64,000 nucleotides of DNA from Escherichia coli (GTDB lineage Bacteria > Pseudomonadota > Gammaproteobacteria > Enterobacterales > Enterobacteriaceae): assembly GCF_029227855.1 (NCBI RefSeq), contig NZ_CP074356.1; one strand, given 5' to 3'. Positions 1 to 11,453 of the stretch are shown here, piece by piece. The notes beneath the pieces are model-generated. The model was not told where the DNA came from and made no database searches. It saw only the letters and a list, made by a program, of their open reading frames with translations. A program made the position numbers and the translations under genes. Positions within the stretch are counted from its first letter, which is position 1. Every line of letters starts with the position of its first letter.

Positions 1-1
1 C

Positions 2-352
2 ATTCTCATCGCCATGTTGCTGAACTCACTGGTGGGGATTGTGCTATTCGTCTCCATTTTATGGTTTAAACAAGGGATGGCAGGGTTTGGCGAACTGGTT
101 TCCAGCGTGCGTTGGTGGACACTGATTCCTGGCTTGCTGGGATCATTTTTTGTCTTTGCCAGTATCAGCGGATATCAAAACGTTGGCGCGGCAACGACCA
201 TTGCAGTACTGGTCGCCAGTCAGTTGATTGGAGGGCTGGCGCTGGATATTTTGCGTAGCCATGGTGTGCCGCTGCGGGCGCTAATCGGCCCAATTTGTGG
301 CGCGATTTTACTCGTGGTTGGCGCCTGGCTGGTGGCCAGGCGCACATTTTAA
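2..352 (+). CDS. ydcZ: Inner membrane protein YdcZ (DUF606), C-terminal part; 5' end lies outside the window
   Basis: ORF 14..352 is hydrophobic and matches the remembered YdcZ C-terminus; reading frame is open from the window edge; synteny with ydcY. Confidence 0.8.
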   Translation: MLIAMLLNSLVGIVLFVSILWFKQGMAGFGELVSSVRWWTLIPGLLGSFFVFASISGYQNVGAATTIAVLVASQLIGGLALDILRSHGVPLRALIGPICGAILLVVGAWLVARRTF

Positions 353-586
353 TCAGAGGATGGTGCCACCTTTGGTTAACTGTTCGTGGCGCGCTTCCAT
401 ATCTTCTTTATGTTTGCGACCGTGATGGGCGATCGCTGTGCGCAGACGCTGCTGCTGGGTATAGCGTTCTTCCCGACTTAACTCCGCATCATCGCTCAGG
501 GCGATTAATAATTCGTTCATATGGGCAATGACGCTCTCTTCAATCGCGGCATCCACGCGCGCGATGACTTCATCCAGATGCGACAT
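353..586 (-). CDS. ydcY: Small protein YdcY (77 aa), function unknown
   Basis: 77-aa ORF with length and position as in K-12, between ydcZ and ortT. Confidence 0.8.
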   Translation of the reverse strand: MSHLDEVIARVDAAIEESVIAHMNELLIALSDDAELSREERYTQQQRLRTAIAHHGRKHKEDMEARHEQLTKGGTIL

Positions 587-671
587 ACTTTCTCCTTAGC
601 CACTTGTGAAATTTATCGATTCATCCAAATGATATAAGTCTGCGTGGTGCCGTCAAGCCAGTGAGTAAGAT

Positions 672-845
672 TTAAAACAGTGAAAACAACAGCGCCACCG
701 GGAAACTCATCGGCCATGTTGCCCCCACCAGAAAGGCGCTTAAGAAACGGATGCGTTTCTTATCGTGAGAAAGAAACCAGGTGATAAGAAATGAGATTGC
801 TGCCATAACCGCATAAAAAACAAGCATATGTTGATAGAGAGACAT
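672..845 (-). CDS. ortT: Orphan membrane toxin OrtT (YdcX), 57 aa
   Basis: ORF 672..893; internal ATG at 845 gives the 57-aa hydrophobic protein MSLYQHMLVFYAVMAAISFL... matching OrtT. Confidence 0.8.
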   Translation of the reverse strand: MSLYQHMLVFYAVMAAISFLITWFLSHDKKRIRFLSAFLVGATWPMSFPVALLFSLF

Positions 846-1039
846 GTACGGGCGTCCAGCCAGATGAATAAAACGCGCGCAAATATGCGTCATTTTTTGA
901 CGTACATCAAGTTTTTTAACCGGTTTGAGAAAAAAACATCAAACAGCAACTTGCCCTTATCCATCTTCAGAATGAGTATTATTGCGGATTTTCTTAACCC
1001 GTACTATACACATAGGGGCAATGATAAAAGGTGGCAAAA

Positions 1040-1135
1040 ATGAATGTTTCCAGTAGAACTGTAGTACTGATAAATGTCTTTGCTGCTGTTGGTTTGTTTA
1101 CTCTTATCTCTATGAGATTTGGCTGGTTTATTTGA
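1040..1135 (+). CDS. yncL: Small inner-membrane protein YncL (31 aa)
   Basis: ATG at 1040 preceded by AGGTGG; translates to MNVSSRTVVLINVFAAVGLFTLISMRFGWFI, one predicted TM helix; below the 60-aa cut-off of the ORF track. Confidence 0.7.
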   Translation: MNVSSRTVVLINVFAAVGLFTLISMRFGWFI

Positions 1136-1157
1136 TGTAGTGATTTTGCACGCAGCA

Positions 1158-1192
1158 CGTACTGTCAGAGAAATCAGTGCTCTGACAGTACG
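1158..1192. terminator. 13-bp perfect-stem hairpin between convergent yncL and patD; putative bidirectional terminator or REP-like structure
   Basis: cgtactgtcagag / ctctgacagtacg inverted repeat with 9-nt loop, seen directly; no clear U-tract on either side. Confidence 0.35.
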
Positions 1193-1231
1193 CAAGATCT
1201 TCTCATACTCTTACGATCTGCAATATTATCC

Positions 1232-2656
1232 TTAATGTTTAACCATGACGTGGCGGACGACGGTGTAATCCTCCAGCCCATAAAGTGACATATCCTTGCC
1301 GTAACCAGAAAGTTTCTGCCCACCGTGCGGCATTTCACTTACCAGCATGAAATGGGTATTGACCCAGGTACAACCATATTGCAGCCGCGCGCTGACGCGA
1401 TGCGCCCTGCCCACATCTTTCGTCCATACCGAGGATGCAAGTCCGTACTGGCTGTCATTTGCCCAGTTTACCACCTGTTCTTCATTGTCGAAGAGCGTAA
1501 CACTCACTACTGGACCAAATACCTCTTTTTGCACGATGGCATCGTCCTGTAATGCGCCAGCCAGTAGCGTCGGCGCATAGTAATAGCCATTACCCTTGCG
1601 CTTTTCACCGCCAGTGATCACTTTGATGTGCCCTGTCGCTTTCGCCTCTTCTACCGCCTTGCTGACGCGTTCGAGATGCGCCAGCGAACTTAAAGGTCCA
1701 AGCTCCGTAGAGTCGTCATCCGGCGCACCCGATTTTAACGTTGCCACTGCAGCACCAAGTTTTTCCACCAGCGTATCGTAAATGCCTTTTTGCGCATAGA
1801 TCCGACAAGCCGCTGTACAATCCTGTCCGGCATTGTAATAGCCAAAAGTACGTACACCTTCGACCACCGCTTCAATATCCGCATCATCAAAAACTATCAC
1901 TGGCGCTTTGCCACCAAGTTCCATATGAGTACGCTTTATGGACGGCGCAGTATGGCTGATGATGTGTTCCCCAGTGGCGATAGAGCCCGTCAGCGACACC
2001 ATCCGCACTTTAGGATGTCCGGTCAGCGGATCGCCCACCGTTTTGCCTCTGCCAAACAGTACGTTAATCACGCCTGCCGGGAAGATATCTTTCGCCAGCT
2101 CTGCCAACTTCAACGCGGTCAGCGGGGTAATTTCTGATGGTTTAAGCACTACGCAGTTTCCTGCCGCCAGCGCCGGAGCCAGTTTCCACGCGGCCATCAT
2201 CAGCGGATAATTCCACGGTGCGATCGAAGCCACGACCCCCAACGGATCGCGACGGATCATCGAAGTATGACCTTTAAGATATTCACCTGCCGCCAGACCA
2301 TTCAGACAGCGCGCCGCACCAGCGAAAAAGCGAAAAACATCGACAATCGCCGGGATTTCATCATTGAACGCACTATGCAGCGGTTTGCCACAATTACGGG
2401 ACTCCAGTTCGGCAAAAACCTGACCATTTTCTTCGATAACATCAGCCAGTTTCAGCAGACATTCCGCACGCACTTTCGGCGTGGTTTGCCCCCATTCGGC
2501 AAATGCTGCATCTGCCGCGCGCACAGCAGCATCGACCTGCTCTGCGGATGCCTCGGCAATCTCCAGTAAAACGTCCCCCGTTGCCGGATTATAGACAGGC
2601 TGTTTTTCCCCTTCGCCGCTAACCAGTTCTCCGTTAATCAGTAAATTATGTTGCAT
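1232..2656 (-). CDS. patD: Gamma-aminobutyraldehyde dehydrogenase PatD (YdcW), 474 aa
   Basis: Full-length aldehyde dehydrogenase ORF with the catalytic Cys/Glu region (ELGGKAP... GQDCTA); sequence recognised as PatD. Confidence 0.95.
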
Positions 2657-2677
2657 AGCATATTCCTGTATCAGTGG

Positions 2678-3472
2678 TTATTGACCATTGTCGCCTTCGC
2701 GGGTTAGCCACCAGGCCCCCAGGATCGGCAAGGTTGTTACCAACATAACCAGCAGTGCCACCACGTTGGTTACCGGTACATCACGCGGTCGCCCAAGCTG
2801 ATTGAGCAACCACAACGGTAACGTTCGTTCATGACCTGCCGTAAAGGTCGTCACGATGATTTCATCGAACGACAAGGCAAACGCCAGCATTCCTCCTGCC
2901 AGTAGCGCCGAACTGAGATTCGGCAACACTACGTAGCGGAAGGTTTGCCAGCCATTGGCCCCAAGATCCATTGATGCCTCAACCAGACTCCACGAGGTGC
3001 GGCGAAAACGGGCGATGACATTGTTAAACACCACCACTACGCAAAAAGTCGCATGGCCGACCACGATGGTGAAAAATCCCGGCTCCAGATTGATGGTTTT
3101 AAAGGCGGTTAATAGCACCAGACCAGTGACAATGCCCGGCAGCGCAATGGGCAGCAGCAGTAACAGCGAAATGGCATTTTTGCCGAAAAAGTCTCGTCGC
3201 CACAGCGCAGCAGCTGCCAGCGTCCCTAACACCAGCGCGATTAATGTCGCCAGCGCTGCCACTTTAAGTGACAGTGTCACTGCATCAAGAATATCACTAC
3301 GCTGTGCTGCCACGCTAAACCAGCGCAGCGTCAGGCCTTGCGGTGGAAAACTAAACGCCGCATCTTCAGTGTTAAACGCATAGGCGGCGATAATCAGGAT
3401 GGGAAAATGTAGGAAAACCACGCCGCCCCAGGCCGCCAGTTTGAGGAAAAACGGTGCGCGTTCAGAGTGCAT
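2678..3472 (-). CDS. ydcV: ABC transporter permease YdcV (264 aa)
   Basis: Multi-TM ORF with ABC permease signature; synteny in the ydcSTUV-patD operon. Confidence 0.9.
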
Positions 3473-4403
3473 CGAACGCTCCCAGACGTTTCACGAACGC
3501 CAGGTACAGTGCGATAAGAACAATCGGCACCAGGGTGAATGCCGCCGCCATCGGCATATTGCCAATCGCTCCCTGCTGGGAATAAACCATATTGCCGATA
3601 AAATATCCTGGAGGGCCAACCAGCTGAGGAACAATAAAATCGCCCAGTGTGAGTGAAAAGGTAAAGATAGAGCCAGCGGCAATACCAGGGATTGCCAGCG
3701 GCAGCACCACATAGCGAAAGGTTTGCCGTGGACGCGCGCCAAGATCAGCCGACGCCTGCAACAATGACAGCGGCAAACGCTCAAGCGCCGCCTGCACGGG
3801 CAGGATCATGAACGGCAACCAGATATAGAGAAACACCAGAAAGCGCCCCAGCCCGGAAGTTGACAGCGTATTGCCGCCCACCGCAGGTAATGTAAGGAAC
3901 GCAGTCAGCAGTGGTTCCAGCCCAAGATGTTGTAAAAACCACTGAGCCACGCCATCTTTTGCCAGCAATAACGTCCAGGCATAGGCTTTAACAATGTAGC
4001 TCGCCCACATCGGCAACATTACCGCAATATAAAAAAACGCTTTCATTTTCCCGCTGGTATAGCGCGCCATATACCACGCCATTGGAAAAGCCAGAATGGC
4101 GCTGGCGATAGTGACTGCCACAGCCATGGTCAGCGTGCGGAGAATGATGTCGTAATTCGCTGGATTAAACAGCGCACGGATATTCGCCAGCGTCAGTTCC
4201 GGCGTTACCGACATGGTGAAATCGTCAAAAGTATAAAAGCCCTGCCATAACAGCGTTAACAGCGAGCCGAAATAGACAATGCCAAACCACATTAGCGGGC
4301 CAAGCAGTAGCAAAAATAGCCCCAGTCCTGGTTTTCGCCAGAAAAAGCCGGATATCTTTCCAACTCCTGGACGTGAAGGTGATTGCAATACGTTCATCGC
4401 CAT
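3462..4403 (-). CDS. ydcU: ABC transporter permease YdcU (313 aa)
   Basis: Multi-TM ORF; overlaps ydcV start by 11 nt (translational coupling); synteny. Confidence 0.9.
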
Positions 4404-5417
4404 TCACCTCTCCTCAACCAGCGATACCATCACATCACGCGACCAGGAAACCATCACCTGTTGTCCGGGCGTGAGCGTGGCGGGCAGTTCTTCGCCTGTC
4501 ATATTGGCCTGACTCACAAGCAGTTTTTCACCGCCGCTCAATTTCAGTTCAAAACGAGTTGCCGCGCCCTGATATTGCACCGCCTGGATCGTGCCATTGG
4601 CCTGCAGTTCACCAGGGGTGTTGAGGCGGATATGTTCCGGTCGCAGGGCGAAGCTTCCCGTCATGCCACAAAGTTTCTCTGCCATCAGTCCATCAAAAAC
4701 ATTCGATGTACCAACGAACCCGGCAACAAACGGCGTGCGCGGGCGCATATAGAGATCACGCGGGGAATCGACCTGCTCAATGCGTCCATTATTGAAAACC
4801 GCCACACGATCGGACATCGATAACGCTTCGCCCTGATCGTGGGTAACGAAGATAAAAGTGATACCGAGAGACTGTTGCAGCTTTTTCAGTTCCAGTTGCA
4901 TCTGCTCACGCAATTTGAGATCCAGTGCGCCGAGCGGTTCATCCAGCAATAACACACGCGGTTCGTTCACCAGTGCTCTGGCGATGGCGACTCGCTGGCG
5001 CTGACCACCAGAAAGTTGTGACGGTTTGCGTTGCTGTACAAACCCCAACGCCACTTTCTCCAGCGCCTCTTGCGCCATTGCGTGTCGCTGCTTTTTATTC
5101 ACGCCTTTGACCATCAGCCCATAGGCGACATTGTCAAGAATCGACATATGCGGAAATAGTGCGTAGTCCTGGAAGACAGTATTCACGTCCCGCTCCCACG
5201 GTGGCAGATTGCTGGCGGGTTTACCAAAGATAGAGATAGCCCCGCCGGAAAGCTGTTCGAAGCCAGCAATCAGGCGCAGGCAGGTGGTTTTGCCGGAGCC
5301 GGACGGCCCCAGCATAGAGAAGAACTCACCATCTTTTATCGCAATACTGACGCCATCTACTGCGCGCACGTCACCGTACAACCGCGAGACGTTGTCAAAC
5401 TCCACTGCGTACGTCAT
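4404..5417 (-). CDS. ydcT: ABC transporter ATP-binding protein YdcT (337 aa)
   Basis: Walker A GPSGSGKTT, ABC signature LSGGQRQR and Walker B LLLDEP visible in the translation. Confidence 0.9.
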   Translation of the reverse strand: MTYAVEFDNVSRLYGDVRAVDGVSIAIKDGEFFSMLGPSGSGKTTCLRLIAGFEQLSGGAISIFGKPASNLPPWERDVNTVFQDYALFPHMSILDNVAYGLMVKGVNKKQRHAMAQEALEKVALGFVQQRKPSQLSGGQRQRVAIARALVNEPRVLLLDEPLGALDLKLREQMQLELKKLQQSLGITFIFVTHDQGEALSMSDRVAVFNNGRIEQVDSPRDLYMRPRTPFVAGFVGTSNVFDGLMAEKLCGMTGSFALRPEHIRLNTPGELQANGTIQAVQYQGAATRFELKLSGGEKLLVSQANMTGEELPATLTPGQQVMVSWSRDVMVSLVEER

Positions 5418-5434
5418 AAAACACCCCAGCGAAG

Positions 5435-6580
5435 TTAGCGACCGCCCATAATGGCAATGTAATCCTGCGTCCAGCGACTGTAGGGAACAAACTTGCCCCC
5501 TTCTGCTATAGGTGTTTTCCAGAAGGCGATTTTATCGAAATAGTTAAAACCGTTTGTTTCACACCCTTTCTCGCCTAATAACGGACTGGCTTTACACCCT
5601 TCCGGCACTACCGGTAACGAGCCAAACCAGGCCGCCACATCGCCCTGCACTTTTGGCGTTAATGACCAGTTCATCCATTTGTAGGCGCAAACCGGATGTT
5701 TCGCTTCACTATGTAGCATGGTGGTGTCAGCCCAACCGGTAACGCCCTCTTTCGGGAATACGGTCGCGACAGGCTGGCCTTCGGCTTTCAGGGCGTTGGC
5801 CTGATAGGGCCATGCACTGGAAGCAACCACACCCTCGTTTTTGAAATCGCTCATTTGCACGGTAGTGTCATGCCAGTAGCGATGGATCAAACTATGTTGA
5901 TCGCGCAGCACTTTCAGCACCGCCTGGTACTGTTCTTCGGTGAGTTGATACGGATCGCTGATGCCCAACTGCGGCTGAGTGGCTTTAACGAACAACGCAG
6001 CGTCCGCAATGTAGATAGGGCCATCATAAGCCTGAACGCGGCCTTTATTGCTCTTGCCGTCCGGCAGATTCTGCTCAACAAAAACCACTTGCCAGCTATC
6101 CGGCGGCGTCGGGAAGGTTTTAGTGTTGTACATCAGCAGGTTCGGTCCCCATTGGTAAGGTGTGCCGTAAACTTTGCCGCCAACGTTAAACCAGTCGCCT
6201 TTAACCACGCGCGGATCGAGCGCTTTCCAGTTGGGAATCAAGGCGGTATTAATCGGCTGCACGCGTTTGCCCATAATCAAACGCAGCGAGGCATCGCCAG
6301 ATGCCGTAACCAGATCGTAACCCCCTTTGGTCATCAGACTGACCATTTCATCGGAAGTCGCGGCGGTTTTCACATTCACCGCGCAGCCTGTCTCTTTTTC
6401 GAATTGCGTTACCCAGTCGTATTGTTTATCAGTTTGTCCGCGTTCGATGTATCCCGGCCAGGCGATAATATCCAGTCGCCCTTCCGGTTTATCTAAATTG
6501 GTAGGCGGTTCGGCGGCGTGAGCGGTCATTATTGTCATGGTGAGCGCACACAGGCTGCTGCGGGCAAATGTCTTGCTCAT
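5435..6580 (-). CDS. ydcS: Periplasmic polyamine-type substrate-binding protein YdcS (381 aa), with signal peptide
   Basis: N-terminal signal peptide (MSKTFARSSLCALTMTIMTAHA) followed by a PotD/PotF-like binding-protein fold; first gene of the operon. Confidence 0.9.
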   Translation of the reverse strand: MSKTFARSSLCALTMTIMTAHAAEPPTNLDKPEGRLDIIAWPGYIERGQTDKQYDWVTQFEKETGCAVNVKTAATSDEMVSLMTKGGYDLVTASGDASLRLIMGKRVQPINTALIPNWKALDPRVVKGDWFNVGGKVYGTPYQWGPNLLMYNTKTFPTPPDSWQVVFVEQNLPDGKSNKGRVQAYDGPIYIADAALFVKATQPQLGISDPYQLTEEQYQAVLKVLRDQHSLIHRYWHDTTVQMSDFKNEGVVASSAWPYQANALKAEGQPVATVFPKEGVTGWADTTMLHSEAKHPVCAYKWMNWSLTPKVQGDVAAWFGSLPVVPEGCKASPLLGEKGCETNGFNYFDKIAFWKTPIAEGGKFVPYSRWTQDYIAIMGGR

Positions 6581-6824
6581 AAGGTCTTACTCCTGTCGTA
6601 ATTAATTGTTCAGCCGCCGTGCCGTAAAAATATCTCCTTGTTTAACCATAGACGGCGGCTTGCAGGCACACCTTCGCCCCTGAGAAAATTTAATCAGGTT
6701 GTGAGCTACCGCGCATTATGCCGTCTGTAAGGTTATCTTCTGGAGTATAGACAAGGAGTTAGGAAATATGACTGCTATTCGAAATTCATATTACTTAACC
6801 TGAGAGGAATTAAATTAAACGCTA

Positions 6825-8231
6825 TTACAGTCGTTCTTGAATAAGTTTGCCTAATTGTTTAACCGCCTGTTCTTCGCGCTCGCCCCACTGCCACGCGGTA
6901 TTAAAACGGAAAAAACGTGACCAGTTTTCACCGGTAGAAAACATTTTACCCGGCGCAATACTGATATGATGCGCCAGTGCCTCCAGGCTTAATTCGCCCG
7001 CATCTAACGGCGCGGGGAGCTCCAGCCAGAGAAAATAACCGCTGTCATTATGATGAATTTTCACTTCCGCAGGCAGATAACGCAGCAGTGCCTGCCAGGC
7101 ACGTTGTTTACGCTCCGCAAGCTGGCGACGCAAGCGACGAAGATGGGCGTCGTATCGGCGCGTGGAAAGGTAATCCACCAGTGCAAGCTGCATCGGTGAG
7201 CTGGTGGAAAGCGTACTCATCAACTGCAAGCGTTGAATTTTACGGGCATGTTTTCCGGCGGCGACCCAACCAATACGAAAACCAGGCACCAGACATTTCG
7301 AAAACGAAGAGCAATACAAAACGCCATCGTGGCGATCCCACGCTTTCGCAGGCAGCGGTTTTTCCCGTCCAAAATAAAGTTCGCTGTACACGTCATCTTC
7401 AATCAGCGTTACGTTGTACTGATTGAGCAACGCTACCAGACTCGCTTTTTTCTGCGGCGTTAAGGTAAATCCGAGTGGATTCTGGCTATTAGTCATCAGC
7501 CAGCACGCTTTCACCGGATACTCCTGCAACGCCAGTTCCAGCGCCTTGAGATCAATCCCTTCTTTAACGTCCGTCGCCACCGATAACGCCTTCAGCCGTA
7601 ACCGCTCCAGCGCCTGCAACGCGCCGTAGAAACAAGGATTCTCAACTATCACCCAATCGCCCGGTTCAGTTACCGCTTGCAAACTGAGGTTTAATGCCTC
7701 TAACGCCCCGGCGGTAATGACAATTTCATCAGGAGAGATAGTGATGCCCTGTAAGGCATAGCGACGAGCAATAGCCTGACGCAGTTCTGCGTTTCCTGGC
7801 GGTAAGTTTTCAATCACGCTCATCGCCGTGGCGGTTTTGCTTACCTGCGCCAACGAGCGGTTGAGTTGTTGAAGCGGAAACAGTCGCGGGTCGGGAAAGG
7901 CCGAGGCAAACGGAACTACCGACGGATCGCGACTGGCCTGCAACATATCAAAAATATAGGTGTTGATATCGACTGCTTCATCTCGAGTGACAGGAATGAC
8001 TGGCGCTTTCGGCATTTTTATTGCCTGTGGCGCAACGTAATAACCCGATTGCGGTCGAGCGATAATATGTCCCTGACTTTCGAGCAACTGATAGGCATGG
8101 CTGACAGTCATAAAGCTCATGCCAGAAAGCGCCACCTGGTCACGCAACGAAGGCAAACGATCGCCAGGTTGCCAGATACCCGACGCAATCTGCTCGCGTA
8201 ATTGTTCTGCAAGCTGCTGGTATTTTTTCAT
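6825..8231 (-). CDS. ydcR: MocR/GntR-family transcriptional regulator with aminotransferase-like domain, YdcR (468 aa)
   Basis: N-terminal winged-HTH plus C-terminal fold-type-I PLP domain in the translation; located upstream of the ydcSTUV-patD operon. Confidence 0.9.
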   Translation of the reverse strand: MKKYQQLAEQLREQIASGIWQPGDRLPSLRDQVALSGMSFMTVSHAYQLLESQGHIIARPQSGYYVAPQAIKMPKAPVIPVTRDEAVDINTYIFDMLQASRDPSVVPFASAFPDPRLFPLQQLNRSLAQVSKTATAMSVIENLPPGNAELRQAIARRYALQGITISPDEIVITAGALEALNLSLQAVTEPGDWVIVENPCFYGALQALERLRLKALSVATDVKEGIDLKALELALQEYPVKACWLMTNSQNPLGFTLTPQKKASLVALLNQYNVTLIEDDVYSELYFGREKPLPAKAWDRHDGVLYCSSFSKCLVPGFRIGWVAAGKHARKIQRLQLMSTLSTSSPMQLALVDYLSTRRYDAHLRRLRRQLAERKQRAWQALLRYLPAEVKIHHNDSGYFLWLELPAPLDAGELSLEALAHHISIAPGKMFSTGENWSRFFRFNTAWQWGEREEQAVKQLGKLIQERL

Positions 8232-8309
8232 TATCGAATCGTAATTATGTGCAGATGATTCGGCAGTCTATATCAGTTGTTAAAAATGACAACTTTTCGT
8301 TAACTGTAA

Positions 8310-8747
<438 letters not shown>

Positions 8748-8771
8748 GTCATTAACCTTTTTAATTGGCGA

Positions 8772-8948
8772 TTAACTCAAACCGAGTTGCTTCAGGATTG
8801 CTTTACGCAATGGTTCTTTTATCTCATCACTGGGGTGACGCGGCATGACACTGCGTCGCCCTTGAAACCTGAGTTTCAAATGGTTGCTGCCATTCGCTAC
8901 ATCGACGCCCTGAGATTCGAGCCAACGTCTGAACTCGCTTTGTTTCAC
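8772..8948 (-). CDS. hicA: Type II toxin HicA (58 aa, GTG start), mRNA interferase
   Basis: Hand translation of the minus strand gives VKQSEFRRWLESQGVDVANGSNHLKLRFQGRRSVMPRHPSDEIKEPLRKAILKQLGLS; below the ORF-track length cut-off. Confidence 0.8.
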   Translation of the reverse strand: MKQSEFRRWLESQGVDVANGSNHLKLRFQGRRSVMPRHPSDEIKEPLRKAILKQLGLS

Positions 8949-9169
8949 ATCGCCTCCCTGCCGCTGAGTATATCAACAAAGTAAACATTAGTGTTTACCT
9001 CCGTGTGTAATTTGCTCGAAAATAGCACTAAATCGCCGCAACGGCAGAATGCAATGCAAAATCAGGAAGGAAGATTCCAGAATTTCTTTGCGCTAATTTG
9101 CAAAACTGAATAATAACCTCAAGAAACTATCGGCATCATAGCGGCAAAAGGTGAGAAAAAGGTGGCGGG

Positions 9170-9400
9170 ATGTTTACGAAGGCGTTATCGGTTGTCTTAT
9201 TAACGTGTGCGCTGTTCTCAGGACAACTCATGGCAGGGCACAAAGGACATGAATTTATGTGGGTAAAGAATGTGGATCATCAGCTACGTCATGAAGCGGA
9301 CAGCGATGAATTGCGTGCCGTGGCGGAAGAGTCGGCGGAAGGTTTGCGCGAGCATTTTTACTGGCAAAAATCGCGCAAACCAGAAGCGGGACAACGTTGA
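9170..9400 (+). CDS. yncJ: Secreted small protein YncJ (76 aa)
   Basis: 76-aa ORF with N-terminal signal peptide; position between hicA and rlhA as in K-12. Confidence 0.85.
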   Translation: MFTKALSVVLLTCALFSGQLMAGHKGHEFMWVKNVDHQLRHEADSDELRAVAEESAEGLREHFYWQKSRKPEAGQR

Positions 9401-9409
9401 GTCATTTAT

Positions 9410-9440
9410 TGCCGGATGCGGCGTGACGCCTTACCCGGCC
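9410..9440. repeat. REP (repetitive extragenic palindromic) element
   Basis: tgccggatgcggcgtgacgccttacccggcc matches the E. coli REP consensus; lies between convergent yncJ and rlhA. Confidence 0.6.
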
Positions 9441-9491
9441 AACAATATCATGCAGATTCAATAAGTTGTGAGTAACCAGAAAACTGGCGTT

Positions 9492-11453
9492 TTACCCTTT
9501 TCGCTTCGGCAATGTTTTCAGCAGCTCATCCGGACTTACGGAGGCGACAACACTTCCCGGTAACGGCATTTTCAGAATGTGATTTTTAATTTTGCCGATG
9601 ACGTGCATCTCGCATGGGCGGCAATCAAACTTTAGCGTTAATACTTCATCGCCGTTAACCAGTTGCATTGGCGTCGCCTTCCAGCTTTTGATATTGCCTT
9701 TCGCCTGTTTCGGGCACAGATTGAAGGCAAAGCGCAAACAATGCTTAGTGATCATCACCGGGACTTCGCCCTTCTCTTCATGTGCCTCATACGCCGCGTC
9801 AATCAGCTGCACACCGTAGCGATGATAAAATTCACGCGCTTTCTGGTTGTATACGTTCGCGAGGAAACTCAGATGCGTTTGCGGATAAACCGGCGCAGGA
9901 TCAGCAACCGGTTTACGGCTGCCCCGCTGGTAACCGGCAAGACGTGCAGCATCCAGCATGTCGGCGGCTTCACGGCGGAACTGGTTTAACAGACTGTTTG
10001 GTACAAACAGCGCACCCGGCAAATTAATTTGCACATCGCGGGCGTAATAGATGGTTTGCCCCAGTTTTGCCAGACCATCCTTTAGATTGTTCATTGCTTT
10101 TTCGGCGTTATTGGCTTCGTCGAACTGCCCATCCAGCGTATGCGTGATGCTGACACCCTCTTCACTGGTGAGGGTCAGAATCAGTTGTTCCTGCCAGCCG
10201 CCCAGTTCAATGTCTACCGCCACCCGACGTTCGCTGGAGGTTTTTGTCAGTGCCTGCTGCCAGTTATGATCAAGATTACGGTTTAGTGGGTGATGCGGGC
10301 GAATTTTGTGCAACTCTGCTGGCATTTCATTGGGCCAGACGCGGTACTGATTTTCTCCGGTTTTCTCGACCGTATTGGCACGAAAGCCGACGACTTCACG
10401 TTTAATCATCACGTTCAGGCCATCGCCATTTGCCAGTGGTTCGGAAACGGCAACATCGAGATGATCTTTCGCCACTTTCAATACTTCACCCACCGGCAGG
10501 CCGATAAATTTCGGCGAATCGAACGCGCCAATATCGCCTTTACGGGCATTCACAAAATAATCTGTGCTACCACGGTGGAAAGTCTTTTCCGTCGATGGAA
10601 CAAAGAAATGTTCAGTACGACCTGATGAAGCACGCGTCAGATCGCCACGTTCTTCAATAATGGCATCCAGCATCTGGCGATAATGGGCGGTGATATTCTT
10701 CACGTAGCTCATATCTTTGTAACGCCCTTCAATCTTGAAGGAGCGTACGCCAGCATCAATCAGCGCGCCGAGGTTGGCAGTCTGATCGTTATCTTTCATC
10801 GACAGCAGATGTTTTTCATAGGAAACCACCCGCCCCTGATCGTCTTTCAATGTGTATGGCAAACGGCACGCCTGCGAGCAATCGCCACGGTTGGCGCTAC
10901 GCCCTGTTTGCGCATGAGAAATGTAGCACTGACCCGAATAGGCCACGCACAGTGCGCCATGAATAAAGAATTCAATGGTCGCGTCCGTGGCCTGGTGAAT
11001 CGCGCGGATCTGCTCAAGATTCAGCTCTCGCGCCAGCACAATCTGCGTGAAGCCAACATCAGAGAGGAACTTCGCTTTTTCTACTGTACGAATGTCGCAC
11101 TGCGTACTGGCGTGCAGTTCAATCGGCGGAATATCAAGTTCCAGAATCCCCATATCCTGAACAATCAGCGCATCGACGCCGGTCTGGTAGAGGTCAGTAA
11201 TCAGCCGTTGCGCGGGTTCCAGCTCATCATCATGCAAAATTGTGTTAAGCGTGACGAAAATTTTTGCACCATAACGATGGGCAAACGGCACCAGCTCGGC
11301 AATATCTTTCAGGCTATTACTGGCATTATGACGGGCACCAAAACCAGGGCCGCCGATATAAACAGCATCGGCACCGTGCAAAATAGCTTCGCGGGCAATG
11401 GCGGCATCGCGTGCCGGACTTAACAGTTCAAGACGATGAGAAGATACGGTCAC
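9492..11453 (-). CDS. rlhA: U32-family peptidase-like protein RlhA (YdcP), 23S rRNA hydroxycytidine synthase; ~653 aa from the GTG at 11453
   Basis: ORF 9492..11495 with U32 peptidase-family features; start chosen to match the remembered K-12 length. Confidence 0.85.
   Translation of the reverse strand: MTVSSHRLELLSPARDAAIAREAILHGADAVYIGGPGFGARHNASNSLKDIAELVPFAHRYGAKIFVTLNTILHDDELEPAQRLITDLYQTGVDALIVQDMGILELDIPPIELHASTQCDIRTVEKAKFLSDVGFTQIVLARELNLEQIRAIHQATDATIEFFIHGALCVAYSGQCYISHAQTGRSANRGDCSQACRLPYTLKDDQGRVVSYEKHLLSMKDNDQTANLGALIDAGVRSFKIEGRYKDMSYVKNITAHYRQMLDAIIEERGDLTRASSGRTEHFFVPSTEKTFHRGSTDYFVNARKGDIGAFDSPKFIGLPVGEVLKVAKDHLDVAVSEPLANGDGLNVMIKREVVGFRANTVEKTGENQYRVWPNEMPAELHKIRPHHPLNRNLDHNWQQALTKTSSERRVAVDIELGGWQEQLILTLTSEEGVSITHTLDGQFDEANNAEKAMNNLKDGLAKLGQTIYYARDVQINLPGALFVPNSLLNQFRREAADMLDAARLAGYQRGSRKPVADPAPVYPQTHLSFLANVYNQKAREFYHRYGVQLIDAAYEAHEEKGEVPVMITKHCLRFAFNLCPKQAKGNIKSWKATPMQLVNGDEVLTLKFDCRPCEMHVIGKIKNHILKMPLPGSVVASVSPDELLKTLPKRKG

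Follow-up and report, generated by a model that had tools for sequence, protein, structure and literature searches.

The ydcR-ydcSTUV-patD cluster was analysed in a 64,000-nucleotide stretch of an Escherichia coli chromosome (contig NZ_CP074356.1), which is called the window throughout. The open reading frame (ORF) listing of the window gives six genes, ydcR, ydcS, ydcT, ydcU, ydcV and patD, all co-directional on the minus strand. They code for a MocR-type regulator, the four components of an importer of the ATP-binding cassette (ABC) type and a gamma-aminobutyraldehyde dehydrogenase. The cluster is already known and annotated, and RefSeq uses the same gene names as the first-pass annotation of this DNA, in which YdcR was placed beside the importer operon as its implied regulator. 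The evidence presented here favours another description, to which we assign a probability of about 0.7: the locus consists of two separately controlled transcription units, which are neighbours by descent and not a regulator with its operon.

According to this proposal, the first unit would be ydcR itself, with a YdcR dimer placing its two winged-helix domains on half-sites 34 bp apart at its own promoter. The ancestral target of YdcR would have been a divergent operon for a cio-type oxidase, since lost from the E. coli chromosome, with scattered targets such as ylaC left behind. The second unit, ydcSTUV-patD, would be transcribed from its own sigma-S-type promoter with a conserved leader of about 150 nt, and YdcSTUV would import an amine that is degraded via an amino-aldehyde, which PatD oxidises.

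The YdcR operator and the predicted ydcR promoter

The region upstream of ydcR was compared across 80 loci encoding YdcR (81-97% identity) from genomes of Enterobacteriaceae. A footprint was obtained that reads ATAACAGTT, followed by a spacer and by CTG[A/T]TATA. It corresponds to the inverted repeat ATAACAG-N27-CTGWTAT, in which 34 bp separate the centres of the half-sites, and has the spaced repeats with a TGT/ACA-type core of a MocR-type operator. The spacer is of identical length in 71 of the 80 loci, while the information-content profile shows its sequence to be largely unconserved. A weight matrix of the two half-sites, trained on the ydcR-upstream sites, recovered the dyad upstream of ydcR in 78/80 loci.

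The operator of the window is located at 8270..8310 on the minus strand and reads ATTACAG (8310..8304)-N27-CTGATAT (8276..8270). It scores 25.1 bits, and no other dyad in the 64 kb reaches 12 bits, a threshold passed 0.15 times per window in shuffled sequence. Its right half is near-perfect (17.7 bits) and its left half degenerate. A consensus scan predicted the ydcR promoter at 8265..8292 on the same strand, with a -35 element TTGTCA (8292..8287), a 16-nt spacer and a -10 element TAGACT (8270..8265). Because the half-sites bracket the -35 element and the right one abuts or overlaps the -10 element, YdcR most likely represses its own gene, as far as operator geometry can tell. The left half-site shares one base with the end of the hicB stop codon. 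It is degenerate in Escherichia, reading ATTACAG in the window and ATTAAAG in strain E69 (L003), a pattern that would be consistent with an insertion of hicAB hard against the operator and a relaxed selection on this half-site.

The protein itself (ydcR, 6825..8231, minus strand, 468 aa) displays at its N-terminus a GntR-type winged helix-turn-helix (HTH) domain (Pfam PF00392, residues 3-66, E = 3.5e-14), then a linker, and at its C-terminus a fold-type-I aminotransferase-like domain (Aminotran_1_2, PF00155, residues 141-445). The putative lysine for binding of pyridoxal 5'-phosphate (PLP) is K312 in the motif SSFSK. This architecture is that of the MocR subfamily of GntR regulators. Searched against NCBIfam, YdcR stayed below the curated cut-offs for PdxR, GabR, PtsJ, EhuR and MocR.

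Published binding data agree with the position of the operator. E. coli YdcR was shown by mass spectrometry to bind PLP, and it shifted a 189-bp fragment reaching from the 3' end of hicB into ydcR from 50 nM on, with two complexes (Pfanzelt et al., 2022, PMC9321722). The operator as found in the window falls within this fragment. The exact 244-bp fragment of the ydcR-ydcS gap served as a negative-control lane of the same gel shift, which was also carried out with PLP, with or without putrescine, and binding was reported for the ydcR promoter fragment only (PMC9321722). In strain K-12, chromatin immunoprecipitation with exonuclease digestion (ChIP-exo) gave YdcR peaks at 1509941-1509970 (signal/noise 12.3, nearest gene ydcR) and at 479257-479280 (ylaC), the former being the strongest locus-specific peak, while neither ydcS nor b1440 is listed in the binding-site file (Gao et al., 2021, PMC8464067 supplement). 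The K-12 equivalent of the operator lies at 1509924..1509964 and overlaps the strongest peak. A half-site of 16.5 bits was also detected 103 bp upstream of the ATG of ylaC in K-12.

Oxidase operons next to relatives of YdcR

More than 30 of the 80 loci contain a second dyad of about 30 bits upstream of ydcR. In both loci that were read, from Enterobacter cloacae (L067) and Citrobacter (L008), it precedes a divergently transcribed operon whose products, a short protein of the CydA-like type (468-473 aa) and a CydB-like one of 336 aa, make up a cio-type bd oxidase. As these sites were absent from the training of the model, they validate it independently. In the E. cloacae locus, an ORF of 62 aa is present between the dyad of the cio operon and that of ydcR (9730..9918, in the direction of ydcR); its cysteine-rich product (..CPCCHGSQYC..CIFC..) is zinc-ribbon-like.

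More distant homologues show the same association. In Vibrio, a homologue with 55% identity is transcribed divergently from genes for Cyt_bd_oxida_I/II and DUF2474 (cioAB), and the gap between them contains the half-site ATAACAG twice, at a distance of 33 bp. Another homologue, of 49% identity, lies ahead of a gene for a FixG/NapH-like iron-sulfur (Fe-S) protein, with the dyad ATATCAG-N28-CTGATAC. The half-site (A)TAWCAG / CTGWTA(T) is hence shared by Enterobacteriaceae and both of these homologues. Like the plasmid dyad described below, the sites of these two homologues lay outside the training set and provide a further independent check of the model. Outside Enterobacteriaceae, the neighbours of the homologues are oxidase or Fe-S genes, never ydcS or patD. 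An aldehyde dehydrogenase gene near the Vibrio homologue was considered as a patD orthologue and rejected, as the identity is only 30%. A site-bearing oxidase or NapH/FixG-like neighbour is thus found in Citrobacter, Enterobacter, Vibrio and a plasmid copy described below, and not in the window, where hicB and hicA lie upstream of ydcR.

A blastn search with sensitive settings found the cio-type operon on none of the 5,426 E. coli chromosomes. Its position is occupied by yncJ-hicAB; the chromosomal gene order upstream is rlhA-yncJ-hicA-hicB-ydcR. Within E. coli the operon was found only on 30 plasmids, in 29 genomes. The plasmid segment, a module captured from a chromosome, comprises a fragment of a U32-peptidase (rlhA-like) gene, DUF2474-cydB-cydA and a divergent ydcR-like gene, with one dyad of 31 bits between the latter two. 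This order likely represents the ancestral arrangement. On plasmid pEC213_1-OXA-181 (L089, NZ_CP061102.1), the module spans 1708..7489 with the dyad at 5996..6040 and insertion sequence (IS) elements on its flanks. Some of the 30 plasmids bearing the module carry OXA-181.

The published reconstruction of MocR regulons points in the same direction. Among the MocR orthologous groups, that of YdcR is the largest, its 65 regulators including PA4132 (MpaR) of Pseudomonas aeruginosa; ylaC (in E. coli and Salmonella), oxidase genes of the cydA/cydB-like type and NapH-like genes were predicted as its targets, and ydcS was not (Suvorova and Rodionov, 2016, PMC5320631). MpaR activates ccoN4 in response to cyanide, with a PLP-cyanide adduct proposed as the signal, and needs the palindrome ATCTGAT as well as a lysine and a tyrosine of the PLP pocket (PMC10790758). 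Beyond their common orthologous group, both regulators have a GntR HTH and a PLP-type domain and a site at their own promoter, and the core CTGAT of the half-site CTGATAT of YdcR recurs in the MpaR motif ATCTGAT. Linkage to a terminal oxidase is also common to both, although for YdcR it is known from relatives only. They differ in that E. coli has no adjacent oxidase target, and in that MpaR activates from a position near -61, while the site of YdcR lies over the core promoter of its own gene. A response to cyanide through the PLP pocket is known for MpaR; for YdcR it would be a possibility.

GabR of Bacillus subtilis is the other instructive comparison. A search of solved structures matched it to residues 4-404 of YdcR, and both proteins share the domain architecture and the binding of PLP. 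The GabR operator likewise has two half-sites with a spacing of about 34 bp, and GabR also represses its own gene. However, the GabR half-sites are direct repeats, and GabR controls the adjacent divergent genes for the use of gamma-aminobutyrate (GABA), gabTD, in response to GABA, whereas YdcR has an inverted repeat and no site at the adjacent amine operon. Against the GabR model YdcR reached 124 bits, the cut-off being 600.

As YdcR belongs to the orthologous group of the cyanide-responsive, oxidase-activating MpaR, its natural signal would more likely be a respiration- or PLP-reactive compound than a polyamine. A bolder version of this idea may be put forward tentatively, and we consider it rather improbable in full. 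E. coli YdcR would be a sensor, now orphaned, of cyanide or of some other poison of respiration, acting like MpaR through a modified PLP cofactor; its ancestral cyanide-insensitive cio-type oxidase would have been lost, leaving self-regulation, ylaC and a few stray sites, with the module now present on some resistance plasmids. As a separate possibility, the conserved ydcS leader might be an undescribed cis-regulatory element.

Control of ydcSTUV-patD

The 244-bp intergenic region between ydcR and ydcS (6581..6824, minus strand) carries the predicted promoter and leader of ydcS. Conserved blocks were defined from an alignment of the gap across genera, and their invariance was judged on 43 sequences. 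Block A (6762..6744) reads CTAACTCCTTGTCTATA[C/A]T across genera and CTAACTCCTTGTCTATACT in the window. It includes a predicted sigma-S-type extended -10 element, TCTATACT (6751..6744) with the hexamer TATACT (6749..6744), which hardly varies between genera and there reads TCTATA[C/A]T. With its C at -13, TCTATACT conforms to the consensus of extended -10 elements for sigma-S. Block B (6717..6684) reads AATGCGC..TCACAACCTGAT.AAATTTC across genera and AATGCGC..TCACAACCTGATTAAATTTTC in the window. Block C (6656..6613) reads GCCGTCTA..AAGGAGATATTTTTACGGCACGGC.GC across genera and GCCGTCTA..AAGGAGATATTTTTACGGCACGGCGGC in the window; a sequence resembling a ribosome-binding site (RBS) lies inside it, and the 9-nt inverted repeat AGCCGCCGT/ACGGCGGCT (6612..6620, 6652..6660) flanks it. 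All three blocks are on the minus strand. Stretches of 10-18 nt in the leader are invariant in the 43 sequences from many genera, a conservation that exceeds the one of the flanking coding DNA.

Block A, the most conserved block of the gap (CTAACTCCTTGTC, 6744..6762), is complementary to block C (6631..6644; 14 nt, 86%) and also to the region of the ydcS RBS (6586..6594; 9 nt, 89%). A pairing of GTCACAA in block B with UUGUGAC just upstream of the RBS was rejected; it is perfect in Klebsiella and Kluyvera and has three mismatches in E. coli, and is therefore not conserved.

Transcription of ydcSTUV-patD would start from a sigma-S-type promoter of its own within the gap. A consensus scan of 6581..6824 predicted neither promoter nor terminator; it missed the sigma-S promoter because the -35 element of the latter is weak. 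In a transcriptomic study supported by quantitative PCR, ydcS and ydcT proved strongly dependent on RpoS, belonging to the small set of genes whose expression fell in an rpoS deletion at each of the two pH values (PMC13339887). Control of ydcSTUV-patD by Nac has been cited (PMC6053447). Inspection of the gap by eye revealed no convincing match to a sigma-54 promoter or to Nac and PuuR sites, and the preprint on PtrR (YneJ) contains nothing on a control of ydcS or patD.

The gene order of the cluster was followed through the same 80 loci. In 67 of them ydcR is followed by ydcS, a number that includes two loci truncated at a contig end, one decaying locus and two with an insertion between ydcR and ydcS. 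The remaining 13 loci are missing ydcSTUV, 12 with patD directly after ydcR and one with neither ydcSTUV nor patD. In C. sedlakii and one further locus (L042), blocks A and B and part of block C are kept ahead of patD. Salmonella diarizonae and the E. cloacae complex have lost the sigma-S block and retain no more than block B and a part of block C; here patD follows ydcR after 154-157 bp. The junctions, which retain leader blocks, show the losses of ydcSTUV to be secondary deletions. As the deletion loci keep patD and parts of the leader, the importer is the dispensable part of the unit, and patD with part of the leader the persistent one. In one Citrobacter amalonaticus (L022, 11988..15433), ydcS, ydcT, ydcU and ydcV are partial or of low identity and patD is intact, which looks like an importer decaying in place.

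Three other explanations of the juxtaposition of ydcR and the importer genes have to be weighed. The one that survives best is an indirect coupling, by which read-through from the YdcR-controlled ydcR promoter sets the basal level of ydcS, or of patD where ydcSTUV is missing. No terminator-like site was predicted between ydcR and ydcS, the short distance to patD and the deletion of the sigma-S block in S. diarizonae and the E. cloacae complex would fit such a coupling, and the adjacency of ydcR and patD outlives every loss of ydcSTUV but one. However, the gap holds a strong and conserved sigma-S promoter, and ydcS and ydcT depend on RpoS, which argues for independent initiation in E. coli. Block A would be transcribed only in a read-through RNA, so that in such an RNA it might mask the ydcS RBS and even silence translation. 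Altogether we regard a coupling of this kind as unlikely.

Less likely again is the explanation that blocks B and C form a cis-acting regulatory RNA, riboswitch-like or an attenuator, sensing the transported compound. It is favoured by the invariance of the blocks, by the persistence of block B and part of block C after deletion of ydcSTUV, and by several inverted repeats, including block A/block C and block A/RBS. But an Rfam scan that covered positions 1..10000 and allowed E-values as high as 1 gave no match in the gap, the RNAalifold consensus of the leader reached only -7 kcal/mol with one covarying pair, and single-sequence folds had z-scores near 0 and no shared architecture. The leader as a structured RNA was rejected as unsupported on these grounds. 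A 15-codon upstream ORF in the E. coli leader (ATGGTTAAAC...TAA) was likewise rejected, its ATG not being kept in other genera. Conservation of primary sequence fits equally well with protein-binding sites in the DNA or with binding sites for small RNAs or proteins.

Direct regulation of ydcSTUV-patD by YdcR from an operator in the gap, in response to putrescine, GABA or a related amine in the style of GabR and gabTD, is largely refuted and the least probable: it could draw on the conserved adjacency of ydcR and ydcS, on the habit of MocR regulators to control neighbouring genes and amine metabolism, and on the main text of PMC9321722, which loosely puts the bound fragment 'upstream of a putrescin transporter', but it is contradicted by the gap sequences, by the gel shift and ChIP-exo data, by the reconstructed regulon and by the oxidase and Fe-S neighbourhoods outside Enterobacteriaceae. 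The operator search in the gap, which the first-pass annotation had proposed, came out negative. The YdcR dyad model had no match in 6581..6824 of the window and none in 78 homologous gaps between ydcR and ydcS or patD, where the best score was -0.8 bits, and none of the inverted repeats listed by mechanical repeat finding in the gap resembles a YdcR half-site. The control of an adjacent metabolic or transport operon that is typical of MocR regulators is thus not seen for ydcSTUV-patD, but in relatives it is seen for the divergent operon of the cio-type oxidase. The implied control of the neighbouring operon by YdcR does not hold; it is wrong as to where the regulator binds and probably as to the logic. 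The first-pass annotation had also raised the question whether the literature already defines the regulatory logic. This is partly the case, in a form different from the one it assumed.

Several points weigh against the separation of the locus into two units as proposed here. Escherichia sequences were part of the training set, so that recovery of the window's own operator is partly circular, and its left half in E. coli reaches only 7.5 bits. MocR regulators can switch motifs with the state of their cofactor, as PdxR does, and on sequence alone an unrecognised site may conceivably exist in the gap. The gap lane of the gel shift is labelled as negative control in PMC9321722, its outcome not being spelled out in the text. 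The ylaC peak of the ChIP-exo data is 64-97 bp away from the strong ylaC half-site, and the conditions of gel shift and ChIP-exo were narrow (PLP with or without putrescine, and glucose minimal medium, respectively). The orthology of YdcR and MpaR is that of a published table (PMC5320631) and not of a sequence comparison in the present analysis. On the side of the second unit, the transcription start of ydcS is an inferred position only, and the lack of a predicted terminator between ydcR and ydcS means that read-through could couple the two units. Finally, the neighbourhood of ydcR and patD is kept in all but one of the 78 loci with downstream sequence, and function rather than inherited order might be the reason.

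Gene products, YdcS ligand and surroundings

The coordinates of the cluster in the first-pass annotation match the ORF listing exactly, and the gene identities and the architecture that it had proposed were confirmed by Pfam and NCBIfam domain matches. All genes of the second unit are on the minus strand. ydcS (5435..6580, with the RBS ACAGGAGT at 6596..6589) codes for a periplasmic substrate-binding protein with a signal peptide, and ydcT (4404..5417) for an ABC ATPase with a C-terminal TOBE domain. ydcU (3462..4403), whose start codon immediately follows the ydcT stop, and ydcV (2678..3472), which overlaps ydcU by 11 nt, code for BPD_transp_1 permeases related to PotB/PotH and PotC/PotI, respectively. 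patD (1232..2656) codes for the gamma-aminobutyraldehyde dehydrogenase, with 1032 bits for the ABALDH equivalog TIGR03374 against a cut-off of 909. The dehydrogenase had been described as fused to the importer; it belongs to the same operon, but patD is a separate ORF that starts 21 nt after ydcV with its own RBS.

The four importer proteins match the families of PotABCD and PotFGHI, each of them below the Pot equivalog cut-offs. YdcS scores 814 bits for the NCBIfam YdcS equivalog. The label 'PotF-like' is accordingly valid at the family level and not beyond it, as YdcS scores only 62 bits for the PotF model (cut-off 636); its score for the PotD model, 46 bits, is also far below the equivalog cut-off. 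The structure of E. coli YdcS has been solved and deposited as a solute-binding protein (PDB 6NLP), and a structure search gave PotF, PotD and SpuE as the nearest solved relatives after YdcS itself. YdcSTUV thus resembles PotFGHI and PotABCD of E. coli and SpuD/SpuE of P. aeruginosa in protein families and four-component layout. It differs from these importers by the additional aldehyde dehydrogenase of the ydc operon, and YdcS differs from PotF by the lack of three of its acidic residues. The PatA-PatD pathway of putrescine degradation by aminotransferase offers a second comparison; PatD of the window is a bona fide equivalog of its dehydrogenase, but patA lies outside the cluster, and the importer is paired with the second enzyme of the pathway only.

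The binding pocket of YdcS was aligned with that of K-12 PotF and checked in eight orthologues. The residues by which PotF binds its ligand are known from structural work, and the K-12 sequence carries them at the corresponding numbers. W37, Y40, S85, W244 and D278 of PotF are kept in YdcS. S38 is replaced by P, D39 by G, E185 by Y or F, F276 by W and Y314 by V, and D247 falls within a deletion of three residues. The pocket positions of YdcS are invariant in the eight orthologues. Only one of the four acidic ligand residues of PotF (D39, E185, D247, D278) has its equivalent kept in YdcS, namely D278. Since the pocket keeps one acidic anchor and the aromatic box of PotF, a singly charged amine or an amino-aldehyde would be a more plausible ligand than putrescine bound in the manner of PotF, a proposal held with low to moderate confidence; putrescine itself appears doubtful. 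The low identity of the alignment (phmmer, 60 bits), in which the positions of E185 and D247 are aligned least securely, counts against this part of the proposal.

The statement of the first-pass annotation that the substrate is not firmly established agrees with the literature searched, where YdcSTUV is called a 'putative' putrescine importer or credited to a transporter database and where no uptake experiment was found. It had also mentioned a second, non-transport role of YdcS, and two such roles have indeed been proposed, as a periplasmic polyhydroxybutyrate (PHB) synthase and in the uptake of double-stranded DNA. The former rested partly on a supposed similarity to alpha/beta-hydrolases; Pfam matches of YdcS were restricted to solute-binding-protein families, and the lipase box G-x-[S/C]-x-G is absent. 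The latter is based on 7- to 10-fold drops of transformation in mutants.

The locus belongs to the core chromosome of E. coli. Of 5,426 complete E. coli genomes, 5,416 match the window over its first 10 kb. Identity across positions 1..10000 is 100% with a single one of these genomes (JNEC-KY178, Japan) and only about 98% with the remaining ~5,400, and the YdcR protein of the window shares 97% identity with its closest counterpart elsewhere in E. coli; the lineage of the strain is unusually divergent across this region. Downstream of patD follow ortT, yncL, ydcY, ydcZ and mnaT. Upstream of ydcR, the ORF call for hicB (8310..8747, 145 aa) begins 21 nt upstream of the RefSeq start (8726..8310, 138 aa). 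A sub-threshold Rfam match to naRNA4 (9401..9440; 30.9 bits, E = 0.021) is located just upstream of the start of rlhA, on a palindromic element resembling repetitive extragenic palindromes (REP).

For the annotation of E. coli, it follows from this analysis that labelling YdcR as a polyamine or GABA regulator on account of its neighbour is unwarranted, and an annotation by guilt of association is hereby corrected. Likewise, neither metabolic models nor the design of putrescine-producing strains should treat YdcSTUV as a proven importer of putrescine. Nothing here amounts to a new kind of system; if the proposal is right, the locus is a clean example of a regulator that has outlived its target operon.

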